Shown in pieces: positions 2,608 to 47,445 of a stretch of 64,000 bases of DNA (position 1 is the first letter of the stretch; each line of letters begins with the position of its first letter). Both the position numbers and the translations under genes were made by a program. This DNA is from Chitinophagales bacterium (GTDB lineage Bacteria > Bacteroidota > Bacteroidia > Chitinophagales > UBA10324), in NCBI GenBank assembly GCA_019694975.1, contig JAIBAY010000004.1, forward strand, positions 378,516 to 442,515. The letters are read 5' to 3'. The notes beneath the pieces were generated by a model. It was not told where the DNA came from. It was given only the letters and a program-made list of their open reading frames with translations, and did not search any database.

Positions 2608-2644
2608 AGAAAAATTGAACAGATAGATCAGCGGGGCAGATTGC

Positions 2645-2812
2645 ATTGGATATTGAATATTGATTATTGAATATTGATTATTGAATATTGAATATTGATT
2701 ATTGGATATTGAATATTGAATATTCAACACCCAACACTCAACACCCAACACTCAACATTCAACACTCAACATTCAACATCCAACACTCAACACTCAATAT
2801 TCAATTTTCAAT
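2645..2812 (-). repeat. Family-1 long AT-rich hairpin repeat (TGAATAT heptads / CAACACTCAA arm), copy H1
   Basis: The left arm is (TTGAATATTGA)n and the right arm is (TCAACACYCAACA)n, centred at 2721/2722. The arm mismatches are almost all A:C on the + strand, which become G:U on the - strand. Strand here denotes the strand on which the RNA fold is best. Confidence 0.8.
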
Positions 2813-2886
2813 ACGAATAGTCGGACTTAGTTATGAATTTAATCTTACGATGCTATCATATTTTATCCCTATAAAAACCAACTTTT

Positions 2887-3261
2887 ATGAAATTTGATTT
2901 ACAGAATCGATTAGTTGACTTTACAGTCCAATGTTGTGATTTAGCTGAGTCATTGCCAAAGACAAGAACGGGAAACTATTTAGCTGATCATTTGATACGT
3001 GCGGGAATCTCTCCCTCGCTGAACTATTCAGAAGCTACCAGTGCAGAATCCGCAAATGATTTTGTGCATAAAATGAAAATTTGCATAAAAGAGCTGCGCG
3101 AAACAATGATTTGCATGGCCATAATCATAAAGAAGAAAATTCTTCCTCATCATGAATCAATAGCAAGACTGATGAAAGAAAATGACGAATTAATAGCTAT
3201 ATTTCATAAAAGCATCGACACTGCGAAATCAAATATTGAAAAGTTTGGAAAAGGAAAGTAA
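2887..3261 (+). CDS. four-helix-bundle protein (23S rRNA intervening-sequence protein / Avd-like family)
   Basis: 124-aa ORF with the family pattern (LIRAGISPSLNYSEA, FVHKMKICIKELRET). It is small and AT-rich, and is bracketed by repeat copies H1 and H2. Confidence 0.78.
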   Translation: MKFDLQNRLVDFTVQCCDLAESLPKTRTGNYLADHLIRAGISPSLNYSEATSAESANDFVHKMKICIKELRETMICMAIIIKKKILPHHESIARLMKENDELIAIFHKSIDTAKSNIEKFGKGK

Positions 3262-3304
3262 GCAGTGTTTCTTAGATGAATGTGCATCAGATGCTTTCAT
3301 TGAC

Positions 3305-3470
3305 ATTCAATCATTCATCATTGAATATTGAATATTGGATATTGAATATTGGATATTGAATATTGAATATTCAACACTCAACACTCAACATTCAACATTC
3401 AACACTCAACACTCAACACGCAACGCTAACTACTCACTTTTAACTTTTCACCACTCACCACTCACCAAAC
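3305..3470 (-). repeat. Family-1 hairpin repeat, copy H2 (with CACTCAC-rich tail)
   Basis: Same arm order as H1 (TTGAATATTGG... then CAACACTCAACA...). The tail ACTACTCAC...CACCACTCACCACTCACC is the reverse complement of the head of the copy at 47117. Confidence 0.8.
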
Positions 3471-5069: not shown

Positions 5070-5110
5070 CGTTTGCACCATCCATAGGATGGATCCAGAC
5101 ACAGAAAAGA

Positions 5111-5190
5111 ATTGAGTGCTGAATATTGAATTTTCAATACTGGATATTGAAAATTTTGATACACTCAACACTCAATTTTTAATAACCAAT
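5111..5190. repeat. Family-1 hairpin repeat, short copy H3
   Basis: ATTGAGTGCTGAATATTGAATTTTCAATACTGGATATTGAAAATTTTGATACACTCAACACTCAAT. It has an outer stem ATTGAGTG/CACTCAAT and an inner stem GAATATTGAA/TCAATAC. Confidence 0.6.
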
Positions 5191-5368
5191 TTTTGTCCAC
5201 TTACGACGTCCCTTCCGACTACCTTTAGCATTTAACTCTCTATTTTCTTATCCTCAGAAAAGTTGCAGTGAAAGCGCAAGCACAAACTATATTAAGAGCC
5301 AAAGTAGTGGCGAATCAAAAACGTGTTTCTTAAAATATTTATTATTTTTCACAAATAAAATAAGCTTT

Positions 5369-5791
5369 ATGGAAACTACTCCAAATTCTCAATCACGAAC
5401 TGAATTAGATTCTGCACGTTTTCTTAAGATGCAATCAAATCTCCATCAAGTTCTTTCTGAATTAAATGAAGGAACATGGATTCGTTTATTAAAGAATGGT
5501 GTCTGGCGCATTTTTCAACTGATCTCCTGGCTGATGTGCATTGCCATGTTGATATTTGCATTTTGGATACCAACAACATTAAATGCTATGATTTATTCAG
5601 ACCAGGATACGCAAATTTCACTTCATGCAAGCAATACGGAATTTTCAGCTATCATTTGGGCCGTCAAAGCAATTTTTATTGTCTCAGGATTAACCTTTGC
5701 TATTATAGCCGTTCTTATTGGAGGAATTGTTTCGCGAAATAATCGATTGCAATCAATCTTTGAAAGATTTAAGCAGATTGATGTGATGTAA
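5369..5791 (+). CDS. hypothetical small membrane protein (2-3 TM)
   Basis: 140-aa ORF with hydrophobic segments (ISWLMCIAMLIFAFWIP, IFIVSGLTFAIIAVLIGGIV). It is AT-rich, has no recognisable motif, and is inserted between mak and glgB. Confidence 0.5.
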   Translation: METTPNSQSRTELDSARFLKMQSNLHQVLSELNEGTWIRLLKNGVWRIFQLISWLMCIAMLIFAFWIPTTLNAMIYSDQDTQISLHASNTEFSAIIWAVKAIFIVSGLTFAIIAVLIGGIVSRNNRLQSIFERFKQIDVM

Positions 5792-5807: not shown

Positions 5808-5975
5808 CTCCGTTAGTCCGGATTTTTTTCCAATCCGGACTAACGGAGAAGAGGATTTCTAATCCTCACATATTTCACAAAGCTTCACAGCACCTCTCCG
5901 ATAGTCCGGACCTTTTTCCAATCCGGACCTGATGACAAAAGGATTTGTTAGTCCTCGCTATTTCTCGAACTTTCA
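5808..5975 (-). repeat. Family-2 mosaic repeat (terminal two-hairpin module), two tandem ~85-bp units in reverse orientation
   Basis: Unit 1 has a perfect 17-bp stem, CTCCGTTAGTCCGGATT (5808-5824) / AATCCGGACTAACGGAG (5832-5848), followed by AGGATTTCTAATCCT. Unit 2 (about 5893-5975) is a diverged copy. The reverse complement matches GGATTAAAAAATC...CCGGATTGGAAATAAATCCGGACTAAC at 30760-30818. Confidence 0.8.
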
Positions 5976-6215
5976 CAGTCCTTCCCATACTCTATAAATC
6001 TTATCTTGCCCAGGTTTAGCGAAGCATGACACGTTTCTTATTCGATAAGAAAGATCCCGCTATTCTTCATGGCAAAGCAGTATTTTTCAATGAGTAATTC
6101 CACCCCGCTGTCTCATTCTGATGAAAACAGCGGGTTAGGTATTACTTTTAGGAAAAAGTCCGTGTAATAACAGATACCATTCAAAAAAATGAAAACAGCA
6201 CAATAGCTGATAAAT

Positions 6216-8285
6216 ATGGATACAACTACTGGTGAAACAATTACCGATGTACAACAGGAAACCTTACTTCCTGTTGAAGGCTATTCACTGCTTACCGCTT
6301 ACGACATTGATCTTTTCAAGTCGGGCAAACATTATAAGCTGTATGAAAAGCTGGGCGCACACCTCGTTGAATACAAAAACACACAAGGCACCTGTTTCGC
6401 CGTCTGGGCGCCCAATGCCGCCATGGTTTCGGTAATCGGTAACTGGAATGGATGGAATAATCAGTCCCATAAACTGATTGCGCGTGGCGATGAGTCGGGC
6501 ATATGGGAAGGCTTCATTCCACACATTGGCAAAGGAGAAGCCTACAAGTATTACATACAATCCAACTTCGGCGGGGCAGCTTTTGAAAAGGGAGATCCTT
6601 TCGCATTTTATTGGGAACAGCCGCCGAAGACAGCTTCCATCGTTTGGGATACCTGGAAAGAATGGAGCGACGATGCCTGGATGGAATTCAGGAAGACAAA
6701 GAACAAACTCAATCAGCCGTTTTCGGTGTATGAAGTGCATCTCGGTTCGTGGCGGAGAAGCCCGGATGATCCTGATAAAGTGCTCGACTATAAACAGCTG
6801 GCGGAAGAATTATCGAAGTATGTGAAAGAAATGAATTTCACCCATGTGGAATTGCTGCCCGTGATGGAACATCCGTTCTATGGTTCATGGGGTTACCAGG
6901 TGACCGGATTTTTTGCACCCAGCTCCAGGTTCGGCGAGCCGCAGGATTTCATGCAGCTCATTGAAACATTGCACAAAAACGGCATCGGTGTCATCCTCGA
7001 TTGGGTGCCTTCCCATTTCCCGGGCGATGGCCACGGTTTGATTTATTTTGACGGCACGGCATTATATGAACATGCTGATCCCAGGAAGGGTTTTCACCCC
7101 GACTGGAACAGCTACATTTTCAATTACGGCAGAAATGAAGTGCGGTCGTTCCTGTTAAGCAATGCTTTTTTCTGGCTCGACCGTTATCATGCTGATGGAT
7201 TGAGAGTGGATGCCGTAGCATCCATGCTGTACCTCGATTATTCCCGCAAGCAGGGAGAATGGGAACCCAATATCCATGGAGGAAGAGAGAACCTCGAAGC
7301 CATTTCCTTTTTGCAGGAATTCAATACCGCCGTGTTTAAAGAGTTTCCGGATGTACAGACCATCGCCGAAGAATCCACCAGCTTTCCCAAAGTGACTCGG
7401 ATGGTTTCGGAAGGCGGACTGGGCTTCAGCATGAAATGGATGATGGGTTGGATGAATGACACGCTGAAATATTTTTCCACCGATCCCATCTACCGCAAAT
7501 ACCACCATAACCAGATTACTTTCAGCATCATGTATGCTTTCGCCGAAAATTTCATGTTGCCCTTTTCACACGATGAAGTGGTGCACCTGAAAAAATCGCT
7601 GCTCGATAAGATGCCGGGCGACCAGTGGCAGCAGTTTGCCAATATGCGGGCCATGCTCGTGTATATGTACACCCATCCGGGAACCAAGCTGCTATTCATG
7701 GGCGGCGAATTCGGGCAATACCGGGAATGGAACCACGAACAAAGTATAGACTGGCACCTGCTGGATTACAGTTCGCATAAAGGGTTGCAGCAACTCATGA
7801 AGGACCTCAATACGCTTTATACCAAAGAGCATGCGCTGTACGATAAAAATTTCTTACCCGACGGGTTTGAATGGATGAAGGTGGATGATGCGGAGCACAG
7901 CGTCCTCATCTATTGCAGGAAAGGCGTGAAAAAATCGGATGTCATGCTCATCGTGCTGAATCTCACTCCGGTGCCGCGTTATGATTACCGGACGGCTGTT
8001 CCGCTTCACGGTGAATGGAAAGAAATCCTTAATACCGATTCGGTGTACTACTGGGGAGCTGGGTTTACCACAAGAGGCAATGTGCATTCAGCAGCCACAC
8101 CGTGGGACGACAAGAGCCACTCCGTAGAAATTGACATTCCGCCGATGGCTGCCTTGCTGTTTAAGTATGTCGAAAAGCGGAAAAGACGGATCATGCCGTC
8201 GGAAGCGGAGATACTGCCGGTTGGCAAAAAGAAGGTATCCACTGCGAATGTGAAGAAACAAAAAGGCGTGAAAAAGAAAAACTGA
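6216..8285 (+). CDS. glgB: 1,4-alpha-glucan branching enzyme GlgB (with ~40-aa Lys/Arg-rich C-terminal tail)
   Basis: 689-aa ORF. Its GH13_9 motifs are AVWAPNA, GVILDWVPSHF, GLRVDAVASMLY, IAEESTSFP and FSHDEVVH. The tail is KRKRRIMPSEAEILPVGKKKVSTANVKKQKGVKKKN. Confidence 0.93.
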   Translation: MDTTTGETITDVQQETLLPVEGYSLLTAYDIDLFKSGKHYKLYEKLGAHLVEYKNTQGTCFAVWAPNAAMVSVIGNWNGWNNQSHKLIARGDESGIWEGFIPHIGKGEAYKYYIQSNFGGAAFEKGDPFAFYWEQPPKTASIVWDTWKEWSDDAWMEFRKTKNKLNQPFSVYEVHLGSWRRSPDDPDKVLDYKQLAEELSKYVKEMNFTHVELLPVMEHPFYGSWGYQVTGFFAPSSRFGEPQDFMQLIETLHKNGIGVILDWVPSHFPGDGHGLIYFDGTALYEHADPRKGFHPDWNSYIFNYGRNEVRSFLLSNAFFWLDRYHADGLRVDAVASMLYLDYSRKQGEWEPNIHGGRENLEAISFLQEFNTAVFKEFPDVQTIAEESTSFPKVTRMVSEGGLGFSMKWMMGWMNDTLKYFSTDPIYRKYHHNQITFSIMYAFAENFMLPFSHDEVVHLKKSLLDKMPGDQWQQFANMRAMLVYMYTHPGTKLLFMGGEFGQYREWNHEQSIDWHLLDYSSHKGLQQLMKDLNTLYTKEHALYDKNFLPDGFEWMKVDDAEHSVLIYCRKGVKKSDVMLIVLNLTPVPRYDYRTAVPLHGEWKEILNTDSVYYWGAGFTTRGNVHSAATPWDDKSHSVEIDIPPMAALLFKYVEKRKRRIMPSEAEILPVGKKKVSTANVKKQKGVKKKN

Positions 8286-8329
8286 GAAATCTTCGCTGTG
8301 TCTAATGATCCAGCAAGTTATGTTGAAAT

Positions 8330-9432
8330 TGAGTGTTCAATATTGAATATTCATTACTGAATATTGAAAAAATCAATACTCAATATCCAACGCCCAATAT
8401 TCAATAACCAATGTAGGTTCTTGCCCAGGGCCGGCGTCCTCGCCGAGCTAGATGCAAGCATTACTATTCAAGTAATGTAAATGATTAGCGAGGAAGCCAA
8501 CGACTGGCAACAATTGGATATTGAATATTGAATATTCATTATTGAATATTGAAAAAATCAATACTCAATATCCAACACCCAATATTCAATAATCAAGGTA
8601 GGTTCTTGCCCAAGGTCGGCGTCCTCGCCGAACAAACTGCAAGCTGTATCAGTTATGAAATGTAAATGATTAGCGAGGAAGCCAACGACTGGCAACAATT
8701 GGATATTGAATATTGAATATTCATTATTGAATATTGAAAAAATCAATACTCAATATCCAACACTCAATATTCAATAATCAATGTAGGTTCTTGCCCAAGG
8801 TCGGCGTCTTCTCTGATCTAACGGCAAGCGGTATTAGTCTTTGAATTCAAATGTTTGACTAAGAAGCCAACGACTGGCAACAATTGGATGTTGAATATTC
8901 ATTACTGAATATTGAAAAAACCAACACTCAATATCCAACACCCAATATTCAATAATCAATGTTGGCACTTGCCCAAGATCGGTGTCTTCTCTGATCTAAC
9001 GGCAAGCGGTATTAGTCTTTGAATTCAAATGTTTGACAAAGAAGCCAACGACTGGCAACAATTGAATATTGAATATTCATTATTGAATATTAAAAAAATA
9101 AATACTCAATATCCAACACCCAATATTCAATAATCAATGTTGGCACTTGCCCAAGATCGGTGTCTTCTCTGATCTAACGGCAAGCGGTATTAGTCTTTGA
9201 ATTCAAATGTTTGACAAAGAAGCCAACGACTGGCAACAATTGGATGTTGAATATTGAATATTCATTACTGAATATTGAAAAAATCAATACTCAATATTCA
9301 ACACTCAAGATTCAATAACCAATGTTGGCACTTGCCCAATGTCGGCGTCCTCGCCGAACATTGGATATTGAATATTCATTACTGAATATTGAAAAAATCA
9401 ATACTCAATATCCAACACTCAATATCCAATTT
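8330..9432. repeat. Tandem array of ~7 structured units (period ~177-186 bp, last unit ~114 bp): family-1 hairpin plus a ~110-bp multi-hairpin spacer module
   Basis: The hairpin loops GAAAAAATC recur at about 8366, 8551, 8736, 8914, 9091, 9277 and 9391. The spacer modules of units 4 and 5 are identical. Units 1-2 and units 3-5 carry different sequences that keep the same stems (TCGGCG..CGCCGA versus AGATC..GATCT). Confidence 0.85.
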
Positions 9433-9681
9433 TCTGCTTTTGAAAGAAGTCGGTGGTTAGTATTCTTTGCACATCTGCCGGCTATGGAATAGCAATATCG
9501 GGTGAGTGTGCCCGGCGAGGGCATTGATTTATTCAATCCTTTTTGTTCTTTTTTGCCGCTAACTTGATATTGCTGTATCACAAAGCATTGGGAAGCCGGA
9601 AGATGCATTTTGTAGTTTCAAATATTACAATCTGATAGTCAATCACTTATATCGGTCAGAATATTTTTTTTAAGCGCATAG

Positions 9682-9711
9682 TTGTAACTTCAGAAAATGA
9701 CTTTACCTTTG
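9682..9711 (+). promoter_or_regulatory. candidate Bacteroidota sigma-A promoter for the 23S-5S unit
   Basis: TACCTTTG (9704-9711) fits the -7 consensus TAnnTTTG. GTTG at 9681-9684 lies 19 nt upstream, in the position of the -33 TTTG element. The site is about 240 nt upstream of 23S. Confidence 0.35.
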
Positions 9712-9868
9712 TGTCCCGCTTTTGAAAAAGCACCCCCTTAAAAGTTCCTTTAAAACAACTGATTCTCCTCTGTATAAAAGCAGGAGTATTGCCTTGAACG
9801 GCTGATCGGTTACCGGTTCAGTGATGCCTCAGCAGATAAGCTCATCTGTGTTGACGCAAGCTGAATAA

Positions 9869-9900
9869 TGTTCTTTGACATATTGAAACGGAAGTACAAT
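9869..9900 (+). promoter_or_regulatory. rrn leader: boxA-like element and 5' strand of the 23S processing stem
   Basis: TGTTCTTTGACAT resembles boxA (TGCTCTTTAACAA). TGACATATTGAAACGGAAGTACAAT (9877-9900) is complementary to ATTGTATTTCCGTTTTTCAATATTGTCA (12869-12896) just 3' of 23S. Confidence 0.6.
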
Positions 9901-9949
9901 TAATTAAAAATCATTAACAATACTCAAAATCGAGTGCGAGATATTGAAG

Positions 9950-12846
<2,897 letters not shown>

Positions 12847-12868
12847 TCTATTTTTTTATTTTTCTTTG

Positions 12869-12896
12869 ATTGTATTTCCGTTTTTCAATATTGTCA
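12869..12896 (+). other. 3' strand of the 23S processing stem
   Basis: Complementary to 9877-9900 (see the leader feature). This is the typical RNase III-type stem that encloses 23S. Confidence 0.55.
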
Positions 12897-12977
12897 CGAT
12901 TTATTAAGTCTGAAGTTGTCAGTCCTTGGTCGTTAGTTTTCTTTCACTAAGTGTTGCTGCTTCTCACTAAAGATTTT

Positions 12978-13087
<110 letters not shown>

Positions 13088-13092
13088 TCCTA

Positions 13093-21966: not shown

Positions 21967-22749
21967 TTATGATTGCCCGCTGAGCATGATTTCTATTCCG
22001 CCAAATGAATTCCATACATAAGAAATGGTTGCCGTGCTGCCTGGAAGAAGATTTAGCATTAGTTTATTGGAACTATAGATCAGGCCCCGCCGAAGCTGGA
22101 CTTCATATTTTCCCTGTTCGAGAGAAAATTTATAAGTCAGTTTGTTAACGAGTATTTCACCAATTTTTTTACCATTGACTAATACGTTTATGTTGCTTTC
22201 ACTCTGGAGGAAACCCGGAGCCTTGTTAAAAAAACATAGTTGTGCTTTTTGCAATGACTCATTGGGGCGCCGGCTGGGGAATTTTTGAAGATATTTGGTT
22301 AAGCCATGAACGCCATTTTTAAATGCATCAAAATCTGTGTCTAACTTGAATTGCTCTGCATTTACCAGGCTGACAAGGCTCGAAGGCAAATCCATTTTGT
22401 GTGGTTTTTGGGCTTTGTCGAGCAAGACAACCACCAATGGTATTTTCTTTTCGAGGGCTTTTTCCAGTTCCATCCGTACAGGATCATCCGCCCTGTCAAT
22501 CTTACGGGCTCTGCCTTCATTGCCGGTCGTGGCATTTAACCAATTGTGTCCGATGATGGCTAGTACAACATCTGAATTCTCCAGTTCTTTTATCATCTTT
22601 TTTTCAAAGTCCTGGCCAACCTTGATCTTTTCCGTGTCTATGAATACCTCAATCGGATACTCTGCTGTGCTTAAACGTAACAATGCTTTTTCCAATGCAT
22701 GTGATTCATGCAAACTGTCATCCCGGCGGTAACTGAGAAAGAAACGCAT
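21967..22749 (-). CDS. TIR-domain protein with PEGA-like C-terminal beta domain (TIR-A)
   Basis: 260 aa. The N-terminus is MRFFLSYRRDD, followed by VFIDTEKIKVGQDF, SDVVLAIIGHNWL and DPVRMELEKALEKKIPLVVVLLD (TIR_2 pattern with a conserved Glu). The C-terminal ~100 aa read INVLVNGKKIGEI...GKYEVQL. Confidence 0.8.
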   Translation of the reverse strand: MRFFLSYRRDDSLHESHALEKALLRLSTAEYPIEVFIDTEKIKVGQDFEKKMIKELENSDVVLAIIGHNWLNATTGNEGRARKIDRADDPVRMELEKALEKKIPLVVVLLDKAQKPHKMDLPSSLVSLVNAEQFKLDTDFDAFKNGVHGLTKYLQKFPSRRPNESLQKAQLCFFNKAPGFLQSESNINVLVNGKKIGEILVNKLTYKFSLEQGKYEVQLRRGLIYSSNKLMLNLLPGSTATISYVWNSFGGIEIMLSGQS

Positions 22750-22762
22750 ACTGTTTAAAAAT

Positions 22763-23524
22763 TTAGTTCTCTGACCTTAGTGAAAGCGTACCCCAATGCG
22801 CATTTCGATCTGCATATAAAACAGACACCTGTTGAGATCTGACTTTTATTCGGCATTCGCATTGTTTGCCAACTTTATTGCCCGGTTTGATTGCAACAAT
22901 ATGTTCTCCGGGAATAACCTTGTGTTCAAATGTTTTGTTTATCAACTGCAAGGTTCCCACTGTTTCATTATCAATCAAAATAATGGCAGGAGGATATTCT
23001 GTTTCGAGGTAGTGGCTGATGAACCCCCCTTTTTTGGTGCGAATCTGAATAGTGCCATATTCAACAGATGGGAGCCATGCACTCTCGTCTCCGGGAGACC
23101 TAAGCATTTCAACAACCTGCATTACATCTTTCTCAAAAGAAGTATTCCTGATGGTGGCGGCATGTATGGTTGCAAAGGCAGTTAATGAAGGCGGGATATC
23201 CTGCTTCCCGGGCATTCTTGCTTCATCAATCAGCAGTGGGGCAATACGGATGTGAGTGTTTTTCAGCGCAGCAGTCAATTCCCGGTTTACATAGTCGCCC
23301 GGCGCATTTAGTATCGTAGCGGATTGTTTGACCGTGCGTAGCCAGTTTTTTCCTATCACCACCAACACCACATCCATATCTCTGATTATTGAATCAATGG
23401 TTGCAGCAGTTGTCTGTGGGTTACTTTGTTTAACTTCTAATGCTGGTAAATGCTCCTGTATATACAGACGGAGTCTTCCTACAAAACCTTTGTCATCCGG
23501 ATGATAGCTTATATATAGACGCAT
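22763..23524 (-). CDS. divergent TIR-domain protein with PEGA-like C-terminal beta domain (TIR-B)
   Basis: Start taken at ATG 23524 (MRLYISYHPDD); the ORF track starts at a GTG at 23554. Motifs are MDVVLVVIGKNWL and DYVNRELTAALKNTHIRIAPLLID. The C-terminus reads AIILIDNETVGTL...GEHIVAI. It ends 13 nt upstream of the TIR-A start. Confidence 0.7.
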   Translation of the reverse strand: MRLYISYHPDDKGFVGRLRLYIQEHLPALEVKQSNPQTTAATIDSIIRDMDVVLVVIGKNWLRTVKQSATILNAPGDYVNRELTAALKNTHIRIAPLLIDEARMPGKQDIPPSLTAFATIHAATIRNTSFEKDVMQVVEMLRSPGDESAWLPSVEYGTIQIRTKKGGFISHYLETEYPPAIILIDNETVGTLQLINKTFEHKVIPGEHIVAIKPGNKVGKQCECRIKVRSQQVSVLYADRNAHWGTLSLRSEN

Positions 23525-23845
23525 ATCAAAAAAATTAAAGCCGTTGTGAGTCACTACAGCGCACTGAAAAAGGTGTTGACCAATATTCCGCCCTCTCTTT
23601 AATGCACAAATTAACGGAATAAAACTTTATGTATTTTGATAATATTAATCTTATTGCCGCAACAAACAGCTGATATAATACCAGGATTTTATGGAATAAG
23701 GCAGTGTATTATTTCACTGCAGCTTACTATGTTTTGAATAATGGTGATTGGAGTATTTTCAAAGTTTATGGGATTGGGTCAGTTGTTGGTCCGGGTTTCC
23801 ACAGGCTTCAATGAGGCCGGCAATCGTGAAAAATGCCGGGCAAGA

Positions 23846-26899: not shown

Positions 26900-27052
26900 G
26901 CTGCCAACGGTTGCCAGCCTTGCATTGATGCCGTTGGTCTTTGCAAAGCGTTGAGGGAAGCAGAGACCAACAAGCTGTTAAAGATACAAGGCAGAATGCG
27001 GATTGGACATCCGATTCTCTATCTGTTCCGACCAAAAAATCAGGACTAACAT
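26900..27052 (+). repeat. Family-2 mosaic repeat, copy a
   Basis: CCGTTGGTCT-TTGCAAAGCGTTGAGGGAAGCAG-AGACCAACAAGCTGTTAAAG, then GGATTGGACATCCGATT, then a CAGGACTAAC tail. Confidence 0.75.
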
Positions 27053-27090
27053 TGCAATTTACTGCTGCTGTAAAGCGAAATGAACCAGCG

Positions 27091-28180: not shown

Positions 28181-28338
28181 AGTTGTTGGTCTTTGCAAAG
28201 TACTTGGTGCCGTTGTTGGTCTTAACAGAACTTGCTGGAGGGTCAGACCAACAACCTGTTAAAGTCTCCGGGCAAATGAGGATTAGAATTCCTTTTCTCA
28301 ATCAATCCGGGATTAAAACAAAGGCCGGCTGGCGGGAG
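28181..28338 (+). repeat. Family-2 mosaic repeat, copy b (first hairpin partly duplicated)
   Basis: GTTGTTGGTCTTTGCAAAG..., then GTTGTTGGTCT-TAACAGAACTTGCTGGAGGGTC-AGACCAACAACCTGTTAAAG, then GGATTAGAATTCC, then ATCCGGGATTAAAACAAAGGCCGG. Confidence 0.75.
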
Positions 28339-28788: not shown

Positions 28789-28799
28789 ATTTGTACGCC

Positions 28800-28930
28800 G
28801 ATATTGGTCTTTGCCTCACGTTGAAGGAGGCATTGATCAATAACCTGTTAAAGATTACTGAAAGACGGAGGAACAAAAATCCTTTTCTCCGTACGTCCTG
28901 GTTTAAAATAAATCCGGACTGACTGGAGGT
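28800..28930 (+). repeat. Family-2 mosaic repeat, copy c
   Basis: ATATTGGTC-TTTGCCTCACGTTGAAGGAGGCAT-TGATCAATAACCTGTTAAAG (the stem is kept through changed bases), then GGAACAAAAATCC, then TTTAAAATAAATCCGGACTGAC. Confidence 0.75.
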
Positions 28931-32748: not shown

Positions 32749-32777
32749 ATGGAGAAGAAGGGATGATGCCTGCCTTT

Positions 32778-32830
32778 GCCGTTGTTGGGCTTAACAAAGC
32801 TTGCGCGAGGCGCAGACCAACAACCTGCGC
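32778..32830 (+). repeat. Family-2 repeat, first-hairpin module only (copy f)
   Basis: GTTGTTGGGC-TTAACAAAGCTTGCGCGAGGCGC-AGACCAACAACCTG, immediately after the sulP stop. Confidence 0.65.
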
Positions 32831-32969
32831 CACAGTTACCCATACATGTTAACGGAAGTTATCTCAAAATACCCTGAGTCATCCTGTCCCGATTGATAGG
32901 GATCAGTAGCTCTTCAATTCATTGACAGATGGCCAAATAGATTCGGCATGTCAGCACTGATTGCTGTTT

Positions 32970-47116: not shown

Positions 47117-47445
47117 GTGAATAGTGAGTAGTGAGTGTTGGATATTGAGTGTTGAATATTGAGTGTTGGATATTGAGTGTTAAATATTGAGTGTTAAATA
47201 TTGAGTATCGGATATTGAGTGTTGAATATTGAGCGTTGAATATTCAGTATCCTATATTGAGTGTTGAAAATTTAAAGTTCAATATTCAATATTCAATATC
47301 CAATATCCAATATCCAATATTCAATATTCAATATTCAATATCCAATATCCAATATCCAATATCCAATATCCAATATCCAATATCCAATAACCAATATTCA
47401 ATATCCAATAACCAATAATCAATATTCAATATCCAATAACCACTG
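47117..47445 (+). repeat. Family-1 giant hairpin, inverted orientation, with a (CAATATY)n microsatellite arm
   Basis: The left arm is (GAGTGTTGRATATT)n over 47130-47268, the loop is about 47269-47277, and the right arm is a run of CAATATT/CAATATC heptads reaching about 47440. Its mismatches are G:T on the + strand. Confidence 0.85.

Follow-up and report, generated by a model that had tools for sequence, protein, structure and literature searches.

A tandem array of heptamer-built hairpins and private modules downstream of glgB in a Chitinophagales bacterium, with the looks of a locally amplified REP/BOX-type repeat

REP units are about 20–40 nt long, have a conserved GTAG head, alternate in orientation within BIMEs and protect the 3′ ends of mRNAs. 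BIMEs have been reported to attenuate transcription inside operons (PMC3049150). The pneumococcal BOX elements (boxA-boxB(n)-boxC) are modular, having variable internal modules and predicted stem-loops when transcribed, and they are enriched near the 3′ ends of genes, while SPRITE repeats, which combine a long duplex with a U-rich tract, have been proposed to be terminators (PMC3049150). Correia (CREE) and ERIC sequences are transcribed palindromic repeats with an orientation-dependent effect, the host mRNA being cut by RNase III or RNase E (PMC3049150). The heptanucleotide repeats (the cyanobacterial STRR, the long simple-sequence repeats (LSSR) and the TAACTGA repeats) are intergenic, sporadic and lineage-specific and occur, among others, in a few Bacteroidetes, and slippage has been proposed for them (PMC4679880). 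Repeats that are structured and intergenic, clusters of modular repeats and microsatellites of heptamers have thus all been described (PMC3049150; PMC4679880). Here, we describe a tandem array at 8327–9432 (~1.1 kb) of a 64-kb stretch of contig JAIBAY010000004.1 of a Chitinophagales bacterium; this whole stretch is referred to as the window. The array lies between glgB and a 23S-5S rRNA operon and looks like a locally amplified repeat of the REP/BOX type, not a conserved RNA gene. What is new is that three features come together: hairpins made of opposed heptamer runs, pairing maintained through G·U on only one strand, and a spacer that is private to the tandem array.

The array is built from two components, a hairpin and a module. 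Tandem Repeats Finder (TRF) reports a period of 185/178 nt with 5.6 copies, 88% matches and a score of 1406, and a repeat search finds five long copies, spaced by 185, 185, 178 and 178 nt, and, for the hairpin, seven copies in register (at 8335, 8520, 8705, 8883, 9061, 9246 and 9360) plus six offset partial matches. When the units are aligned, seven hairpins (about 73–85 nt) and six modules (five of 100 nt, the last of 36 nt) are obtained, which is n+1 hairpins for n modules with the last module truncated. The make-up is then five full units, one truncated unit of 121 nt and a terminal hairpin. The initial annotation, which was made from the sequence alone, had described about seven units of ~180 bp; the tandem array is real, but it does not consist of seven equal units. 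That the units are highly structured is borne out, since on either strand their folds are far more stable than those of dinucleotide shuffles (z −4.7 to −8.6). The upstream gene, glgB, is the last of a glgE / mak-like / glgB cluster, its stop codon is 43 nt from the start of the array (h1), and no terminator is found between the two. The features are listed below, with energies predicted for folded RNA; R1 denotes the covariance model that was built from the seven hairpins of the array and applied without filters to the whole 64-kb window.

6216..8285, plus strand: glgB (1,4-alpha-glucan branching enzyme), with Pfam domains CBM_48, Alpha-amylase and Alpha-amylase_C; homologues are named GlgB
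8328..8412, minus strand: h1, heptamer-built hairpin; −25.0 (minus) and −15.8 (plus) kcal/mol; R1 102 bits (minus) and 42.7 bits (plus)
8413..8512, no strand assigned: m1, module of type A; GC-rich hairpin GGCCGGCG-TCCT-CGCCGAGC (about 8429–8448); invariant end GAAGCCAACGACTGGCAACA
8513..8597, minus strand: h2, hairpin; −36.4 (minus) and −23.2 (plus) kcal/mol; R1 104.8 versus 51.8 bits
8598..8697, no strand assigned: m2, module of type A; 86/100 identity to m1
8698..8782, minus strand: h3, hairpin; −37.7 (z −9.5, minus) and −25.3 (z −6.2, plus) kcal/mol
8783..8882, no strand assigned: m3, chimeric module; in the table of variable columns, the switch from type A to type B lies between alignment columns 111 and 112
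8883..8960, minus strand: h4, hairpin shorter by one heptamer; −26.7 (minus) and −15.8 (plus) kcal/mol
8961..9060, no strand assigned: m4, module of type B; apparently decayed inner hairpin AGATC-N12-GATCT, palindrome TTTGAATTCAAA, outer stem GTTGGC..GCCAAC
9061..9138, minus strand: h5, hairpin; −26.7 (minus) and −14.2 (plus) kcal/mol
9139..9238, no strand assigned: m5, module of type B; 100/100 identity to m4
9239..9323, minus strand: h6, hairpin; −32.9 (minus) and −20.1 (plus) kcal/mol
9324..9359, no strand assigned: m6, chimeric truncated module of 36 nt; B-type start (GTTGGCAC) followed by the A-type GC hairpin TCGGCG-TCCT-CGCCGA
9360..9430, minus strand: h7, final hairpin; −35.7 (minus) and −18.9 (plus) kcal/mol
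9508..9524, plus strand: terminator-like GC hairpin with a T-rich tail, embedded in a larger stem (AGCAATATC...GATATTGCT); located after the array and before the rRNA promoter

Directly 3′ of h7 on the plus strand there is a U-rich tail, TTTTCTGCTTTT (9430–9441), with 8 T in 16 nt.

With REP/BIME clusters, the array shares the intergenic location just past genes, the palindromic nature, the clustering with further short motifs and the variability from strain to strain; the hairpin family, though not the module, is also dispersed, intergenic and downstream of genes, with five loci in 64 kb. The likeness in spirit to BIME/REP clusters that had been pointed out is supported in this sense, the array being a clustered, highly structured intergenic repeat. 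The differences are that the hairpins of the family are 73–326 nt long, consist of tandem heptamers, lack the GTAG head and, within the array, all point in one direction. No RAYT/Y1 transposase is found among the window open reading frames (ORFs) scanned against Pfam or the genes annotated on matching contigs. BOX and SPRITE, likened here by description, share with the array the modular build, the variable module number, the stem-loops and the location at gene 3′ ends; BOX has no heptamer substructure, and its modules are dispersed, whereas the module of the array is not. The tandem 7-nt units in non-coding DNA that define STRR and LSSR are also present here. However, the members of those families are direct repeats that often closely precede start codons, whereas here opposed runs form a hairpin with G·U pairs on one strand; the array furthermore alternates this hairpin with a non-heptamer module, and the inverted two-arm arrangement exceeds the definition of that family. 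Correia and ERIC elements differ in being fixed-length, MITE-like units with terminal inverted repeats, and to our knowledge no tandem array with a private spacer exists for them. In this comparison by description, no described repeat family appears to match the opposed-heptamer hairpins with one-strand G·U pairing.

CRISPR and integron attC arrays resemble the locus in that a palindromic repeat alternates with other segments, with n+1 repeats to n segments and a single orientation of the repeats. A CRISPR array was rejected, because the "spacers" are homologous to each other (71–100% identity), the repeats are 73–85 nt long (23–55 nt in CRISPR) and no cas gene is found among the scanned window ORFs or the annotations of matching contigs. 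In the attC consensus, R'' (RYYYAAC) is 5′ and R' (GTTRRRY) is 3′. The heptamers of the array fit GTTRRRY/RYYYAAC, but in the reverse order, with the GTTRRRY-like arm 5′ on either strand, and no integrase is found among the examined ORFs of the window; this assignment was also rejected. The same holds for a miniature inverted-repeat transposable element (MITE) of the type arm-module-arm, since the module is confined to the array and six insertions would be needed, each into the AAAAA loop of the neighbouring copy.

The module is private to this array. Its invariant 24-mer, GAAGCCAACGACTGGCAACAATTG, occurs five times in the window, always inside the array, and no similarity to the module outside the array is detected by blastn-short against the window. 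In a scan of a metagenome collection with the invariant 20-mer, only three matches are seen, each within an unrelated coding sequence and taken to be due to chance. BLAST searches of plasmids and phages give no phage match and, for plasmids, only an unrelated (AATAATC)n run of E. fergusonii; in the IncFII plasmids of this species (L144, 1490–1575), (AATAATC)12 is located in an unannotated spacer near an integrase gene and is not related to the array. The viral scan with the GC-hairpin motif has no match, and those with (ATTGAAT)3 and with the hairpin loop return direct heptamer runs or chance matches and no such hairpins. Spurious ORFs across the module, used in exact look-ups and in a homology search for related arrays, likewise give no match.

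The modules are mosaics. They are 71–100% identical to each other and belong to type A (m1 and m2, 86/100) or type B (m4 and m5), and m3 and m6 are chimeras of the two types. The spacer modules of units 4 and 5 are identical (100/100), as had been noticed before. The hairpins of these units are not: h4 and h5 have 7 differences in 78 positions. Columns 30 and 67 of the hairpin alignment display all four variant combinations (four-gamete pattern). A mosaic of this kind is what unequal crossing-over and gene conversion inside the array would be expected to produce. The earlier suggestion of a recent duplication or conversion is therefore supported by the identity of units 4 and 5, by the chimeric units 3 and 6 and by the four-gamete pattern of the hairpins.

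The stems of the module are less uniform than had been described. The outer stem GTTGGC..GCCAAC is present, but in units 4 and 5 only, units 1–3 reading GTAGGTTC; CATTACT..AGTAATG is found in unit 1 alone, and so not in unit 2. The hairpin TCGGCG-TCCT-CGCCGA is indeed present in units 1 and 2 and in the short unit 6, and AGATC-N12-GATCT, assigned to units 3–5, is seen in units 4 and 5, unit 3 having AGGTC...GATCT. This type B inner hairpin (−8.1 kcal/mol) is most plausibly derived by decay from a GC-rich hairpin, which is intact in a strain whose GlgB is 96% identical (AGGTCGGCG-TCCC-CGCCGACCT, −17.4 kcal/mol), with one pair compensated, from G-C to A-T. The RNAalifold consensus folds differ between the strands. 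The minus-strand fold is a nested stem (TTGCC/GGCAA, GTTGGC/GCCGAC, TCYTN/...) of 29 pairs, with 92% of the cells paired and three double-change pairs, and the plus-strand fold has CTTGCC/GGCAAG around the inner hairpin and GCCA/TGGC, 18 pairs in total, without compensatory change. It had been claimed that the inner hairpins differ between units but stay paired; as covariation this does not hold, with three double changes on the minus strand and none on the plus strand. Because there are only two module lineages plus their recombinants, a conserved module structure has no statistical support.

Homologues of GlgB were found at 99, 96, 87, 86, 81 and 73% identity, among others. The one at 73% is named Chitinophagales, and among the matches listed in a scan of genome contigs with GlgB the best (65%) is in a Chitinophagales metagenome-assembled genome; T9SS sorting domains also identify the organism as one of the Bacteroidota. 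The loci of the GlgB homologues show that the array turns over rapidly. The 99% strain, an NCBI metagenome contig (L105), matches window 8225–8576 with 98% identity over 352 nt and carries the linker, h1, m1 and the start of h2; six of the seven differences are in the hairpins, and module 1 is identical. This match confirms the start of the array in an independent assembly. The 99% strain is also without the 140-aa ORF seen at 5369–5791 of the window. In the 96% strain (L108), the linker is the same and h1 is represented by its left arm and loop, which lead directly into the GC-hairpin motif (TTGCCCAAGGTCGGCCTCCTCGTCGACCTAAC); this motif is present again 82 nt further on. The 86% relative (L104) has a compact glgE-mak-glgB cluster with spacers of 101 and 89 nt, no heptamers, no array and an unrelated 3′ flank, and in the 81% relative (L100), whose cluster is likewise compact, the next gene after glgB, 6 nt away, codes for a glycosyltransferase and is convergent, and neither rRNA genes nor an array are present there. 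The lack of conservation beyond the species and the variation among strains at 96–100% argue against a specific conserved function. The initial annotation had made the functional interest of the locus depend, among other things, on supported stem covariation and on arrays in relatives; with covariation unsupported and the relatives without an array, this interest is low.

It is most improbable that the array, or its copy number, is an artefact of assembly. The short-read contigs of the same organism all end inside the repeats, and the modules of units 4 and 5 are identical, which is what an artefact might look like; the 98% match of the independent NCBI assembly over 352 nt, which covers the linker, h1, m1 and the start of h2, is not accounted for in this way, and the units can be told apart (h4 and h5 differ at seven positions, and the modules form a graded mosaic), unlike in a simple collapse or expansion.

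We lean towards the reading that the array is a lineage-specific composite repeat, amplified in place by unequal recombination between hairpin copies and acting at most as a passive hairpin barrier. The starting point would be a species-wide family of hairpins, made of inverted ATTGAAT/ATTCAAY heptamer runs, which sit past stop codons. One such hairpin would have lain beside a small GC-rich hairpin region downstream of glgB, and unequal homologous recombination and gene conversion between hairpin copies would have multiplied the combination of the hairpin and the ~100-nt module. Such a process would leave one hairpin more than there are modules (n+1 and n), modules of two types, units that are chimeric and one pair that is identical, and slippage of heptamers would keep altering the hairpins. 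Because no terminator is found between glgB and the array, the plus strand is probably transcribed as a long 3′ region of glgB. The stacked plus-strand hairpins may then passively impede both 3′ exonucleases and transcription that reads through toward the rRNA promoter, with h7 and its U-rich tail (9430–9441) and the hairpin at 9508–9524 as the likely stop points. The weaker plus-strand hairpins, the tail and the 9508–9524 structure could thus end or protect the glgB transcript and shield the rRNA promoter. REP/BIME, BOX and SPRITE repeats are thought to act as passive barriers of this sort (PMC3049150).

On the downstream side, the array faces the following features.

9682..9711, plus strand: Bacteroidetes-type promoter TTG-N19-TACCTTTG, a perfect match to TTG-N17-21-TAnnTTTG
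9952..13088, plus strand: stand-alone 23S-5S operon, with 23S rRNA (9952–12852) and 5S rRNA (12977–13088)

The pattern TTG-N17-21-TAnnTTTG, which we take to be the Bacteroidetes promoter consensus, has only three perfect matches in the 64 kb when both strands are considered. The match at 9682–9711, ~240 nt upstream of the 23S gene, is probably the promoter of the 23S-5S operon, and its −33 element is 250 nt from the end of the array. The flanks named in the initial annotation are confirmed as far as glgB (6216–8285) upstream and the 23S and 5S genes downstream are concerned, but the rRNA unit has neither a 16S nor a tRNA gene, and none of these is found anywhere in the 64-kb window. Since the rRNA genes of the 81% relative do not adjoin glgB, the glgB/rRNA junction is a synteny break. 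The array adjoins this break, where the 23S-5S operon without 16S came beside glgB, and such repeats may therefore mark or mediate rearrangements. A functional link between the array and the rRNA promoter, as had been hinted at by calling the position notable, is not borne out: the likely promoter is 250 nt past the array, relatives lack the array and the 81% relative also lacks the rRNA genes at this place.

These data also bear on the proposal that the units are tandem small-RNA genes, as in arrays of the NsiR1 type, in which every unit has a promoter and a terminator of its own, or that the array is an upstream regulatory, protein-binding array of the 23S-5S promoter, which is considered very improbable. 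The location upstream of an rRNA operon, the structured units and the recurrence of the palindrome TTGAATATTCAA are in agreement with it. A promoter-like site per unit is, however, not found by promoter-pattern scans; TTG-N17-21-TAnnTTTG is absent from the array on either strand, where only relaxed or sigma-70-like weak matches are seen in scans that covered the Bacteroidetes-type and sigma-70-like patterns. Between the end of the array and the −33 element there are moreover 250 nt that include a terminator-like structure, no rRNA genes follow glgB in the 81% relative, the 81% and 86% relatives have no array, the same hairpins exist at four other places unrelated to rRNA, and the units are not conserved even between strains at 96–100%. 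With Rfam 15, only the 23S and 5S rRNA genes pass the gathering threshold in the window, and at E<=10 the array has only sub-threshold matches, to models of miRNA precursors, snoRNAs and similar hairpins. With respect to coding capacity, no ORF longer than 67 aa is found in 8286–9950, and the homology search with the longest ORF of the array gives no homologue. Tandem small peptides, in the form of TTG-started ORFs of 36–38 aa per unit, were rejected, as the variable positions are distributed 12/13/9 over the codon positions and unit 5 has an in-frame stop at codon 4.

The hairpin, in contrast to the module, is dispersed. Its arms are short heptamer runs, with ATTGAAT on the left and AYYCAAY on the right. 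On the minus strand, R1 scores each of the seven array hairpins, all in direct orientation, at 95–105 bits, and its matches comprise the array and four other places, nothing else. All five loci begin about 10–60 nt past a stop codon. The four other members are as follows.

2640..2815, minus strand: long hairpin, (ATTGAAT)11 followed by (AYYCAAC)12; −87.9 (minus) and −35.0 (plus) kcal/mol; R1 match
3300..3440, minus strand: family member; −58.2 (minus) and −22.4 (plus) kcal/mol; R1 match
5105..5200, strand preference unclear: short family member; −28.7 (minus) and −24.5 (plus) kcal/mol; R1 match
47120..47445, plus strand: family member in the opposite orientation, a 326-nt hairpin of about 124 pairs; −123.2 (plus) and −106.8 (minus) kcal/mol; R1 match

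The 47120 hairpin is built of TGAGTGT/TGAATAT and CAATATY heptamers and is located between an outer-membrane beta-barrel gene and an NDH-2 gene. TRF detects period 7 with 9–23 copies at 2645–2813, 3303–3436 and 47280–47442, and with about 6 copies within the array hairpins.

The heptamers have also been seen elsewhere. Just upstream of the mak-like gene of the 81% relative (L100, 8329–8375), there is a short palindromic cluster of ATTGAAC/ATTGAAT/ATTCAAT with the 12-bp palindrome TTGAATATTCAA; it lies in the glgE-mak spacer, which is the same spacer as that of the large hairpins of the window. The heptamer motif is therefore older than the species. Exact ATTGAAT dimers are not found in distant Bacteroidota (~1.6 Mb of loci, mostly from distant Bacteroidota, close relatives included). 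In viral contigs of IMG/VR (L109–L138), direct repeats (ATTGAAT)3–7 are present in 30 stretches, including contigs of 44–59% GC; they are often a few bases upstream of a start codon, have no inverted arm and recall the Beggiatoaceae TAACTGA repeats. The glgE-mak spacer of the window contains a gene (2887–3261; 124 aa) whose product belongs to the "23S rRNA intervening sequence protein" family (23S_rRNA_IVP); it sits between the 2640 and 3300 hairpins. The ~800-nt block 2640–3440, which looks like a hairpin-flanked cassette, is not present in the 86% relative, whose glgE-mak spacer is 101 nt.

The hairpins are strand-polar, a feature that had escaped the initial annotation. The mismatches in their stems are A·C on the plus strand and G·U at the same positions on the minus strand, and when folded as RNA, the array hairpins have −25 to −37.7 kcal/mol on the minus strand and −14 to −25 kcal/mol on the plus strand. 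Counted on the stronger strand over the whole family, there are 88 G·U pairs versus 19 symmetric A·C mismatches; the minus-strand ratio of G·U to A·C is 17:1 in the 2640 element and 15:2 in the 3300 element. In the 25-pair core of the seven array hairpins, 97.7% of the cells are standard pairs on the minus strand, and the one-sided variable pairs (n=5) all toggle between G·U and A·U only. When DNA energy parameters are used, the strands are nearly equal (−17.8/−15.8 and −14.1/−12.1 kcal/mol), the first of these hairpins having −37.7/−25.3 kcal/mol as RNA; the polarity thus matters for RNA rather than for folded DNA. The stronger strand is antisense to the flanking genes at four of the five loci, a number too small to generalise, and the 47120 element is the only member whose stronger strand is sense. 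Mutational bias was rejected by reasoning as the cause of the asymmetry, as the usual C-to-T excess on the non-template/lagging-template strand predicts the opposite polarity. A similar design, (AATAGAA)n opposed to (TTCTCYA)n, is found in Hufsiella ginkgonis (L017, 16580–16700), in a hairpin between convergent genes. This hairpin is also asymmetric (−47.2 versus −39.5), and the opposed-heptamer design may recur in Bacteroidota with lineage-specific heptamers.

Several observations weigh against a locally amplified repeat with at most a passive role on the sense strand. For all seven array hairpins and two of the four other members, the RNA from the strand antisense to the flanking genes folds far more stably, by 9–17 kcal/mol per array hairpin and with −87.9 versus −35.0 for the 2640 element, and such a polarity is not predicted by a passive sense-strand role. 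U-rich tails are found only at h7 and the 5105 element, so that most of the hairpins are not canonical terminators. Finally, the copy number comes from one assembly, the short-read contigs of the same organism all breaking at these repeats. The strand polarity is left unexplained by local amplification and is the interesting part of this locus.

The main rival, which is the only reading that uses the G·U polarity, is that the minus strand is functional: the heptamer hairpins, in the array and elsewhere, would be read from the strand opposite to the glg genes, and their RNA would form near-perfect duplexes of 25–80 bp with G·U pairs. They could be substrates of RNase III, processed small RNAs or blocks to antisense transcription from the rRNA promoter region. 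This reading is rather unlikely. It is in agreement with the excess of G·U over A·C (88:19 overall; 17:1 and 15:2 in the two large neighbours), with the paired cells (97.7%) and the five out of five one-sided pairs that toggle G·U/A·U, and with an asymmetry that is large with RNA parameters and nearly gone with those of DNA. The minus strand of each B-type unit also carries the small hairpin GCCAGTCGTTGGC followed by TTCTTTGT, which is weakly terminator-like, and the unrelated heptamer hairpin of Hufsiella has a similar, smaller asymmetry. However, no Bacteroidetes-type minus-strand promoter is seen inside the array or to its right, the 47120 element is oppositely oriented among plus-strand genes, and there is no conservation in relatives. 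Moreover, because the arms grow by amplification of heptamer variants and the copies may share a single polar ancestor, the independent events are few and a binomial P is inflated. By analogy with Correia and ERIC elements, cleavage of the host mRNA might offer a reason for keeping the hairpins of the glg cluster in the weakly folding orientation of the mRNA.

Another possibility, considered quite unlikely, is that a trans-acting enzyme, either a HUH/Y1 transposase (RAYT or IS200/IS605-like) or another recombinase, recognises the hairpins when they fold as single-stranded DNA, and that, in analogy with REP/REPIN clusters, the array grew by repeated insertion or recombination at the hairpins. 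A dispersed, polar and intergenic hairpin family would fit, as would the cassette-like insertion of the 23S_rRNA_IVP gene flanked by the 2640 and 3300 hairpins, which relatives lack. In addition, in the 87% relative (L106, 3102–3650; L107, 2415–2963) glgB is followed by a gene for a 182-aa protein with a weak Y1_Tnp (IS200/RAYT-like) match and with inverted repeats; these repeats, CGCGCTCGTTTGCAGACAAGC... / ...GCTTGTCTGCAAACGAGCGCG, are GC-rich and unrelated to the heptamers, and the 5′ end of the gene is partly duplicated together with its flank. However, neither the scanned ORFs of the window nor the annotated genes of matching contigs include a transposase or an integrase. The length of the hairpins, about 70 to 326 nt depending on the heptamer number, is unlike that of fixed REP units, seven out of seven are in direct orientation, the two strands are nearly equal with DNA parameters, and the module is not dispersed.

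A bolder proposal, which must be regarded as doubtful, is that the heptamer hairpins are an undescribed class of strand-polar elements of Chitinophagales-like Bacteroidota, whose one-strand G·U duplex is kept by selection. They would spread or regenerate by slippage and recombination or through an RNA or single-stranded DNA intermediate, would carry cassettes such as the 23S_rRNA_IVP gene and would seed arrays, the present array then being an antisense multi-hairpin RNA locus or an RNase III "sponge" beside the rRNA operon. If the array is instead a composite repeat amplified in place, it is ordinary selfish or neutral structured repeat DNA. Such arrays nevertheless call for caution, as they break short-read assemblies, vary between near-identical strains and mimic RNA genes or CRISPR-like loci. 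Bacteroidota do not use Shine-Dalgarno-led translation and have atypical promoters; the opposed-heptamer hairpins may inform how these bacteria end or insulate their transcripts. The interest would rise if the polarity reflected a transcribed antisense RNA or a new mobility mechanism.

A second repeat family, "family 2", is also present in the window. It is about 88–130 nt long, has two hairpins and is found at 5808–5978, 26925–27060, 28185–28330, 28795–28930 and 32775–32860, as well as in the 99% strain (L105, 130–470). Its orientation relative to the neighbouring genes is the same at four of the five sites, the fifth (32775) being between convergent genes. The initial annotation had regarded the two families as mosaics of shared modules. 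This view is not supported, as the matches concerned (9/14 and 9/13) are at chance level and blastn-short gives no match between the module and family 2; a 14-mer search for the likeness finds 16 matches versus 9.9 expected. Modules shared with the family 2 copies at 26933, 28185, 28803, 32784 and 5808–5978 were accordingly rejected. Upstream of glgB, the tandem copies of family 2 (88 nt) number two in the window and four in the 99% strain. Elsewhere in the window, at 21967–23554, two adjacent minus-strand genes code for TIR_2-domain proteins (260 and 253–263 aa), possibly a defence-related pair.

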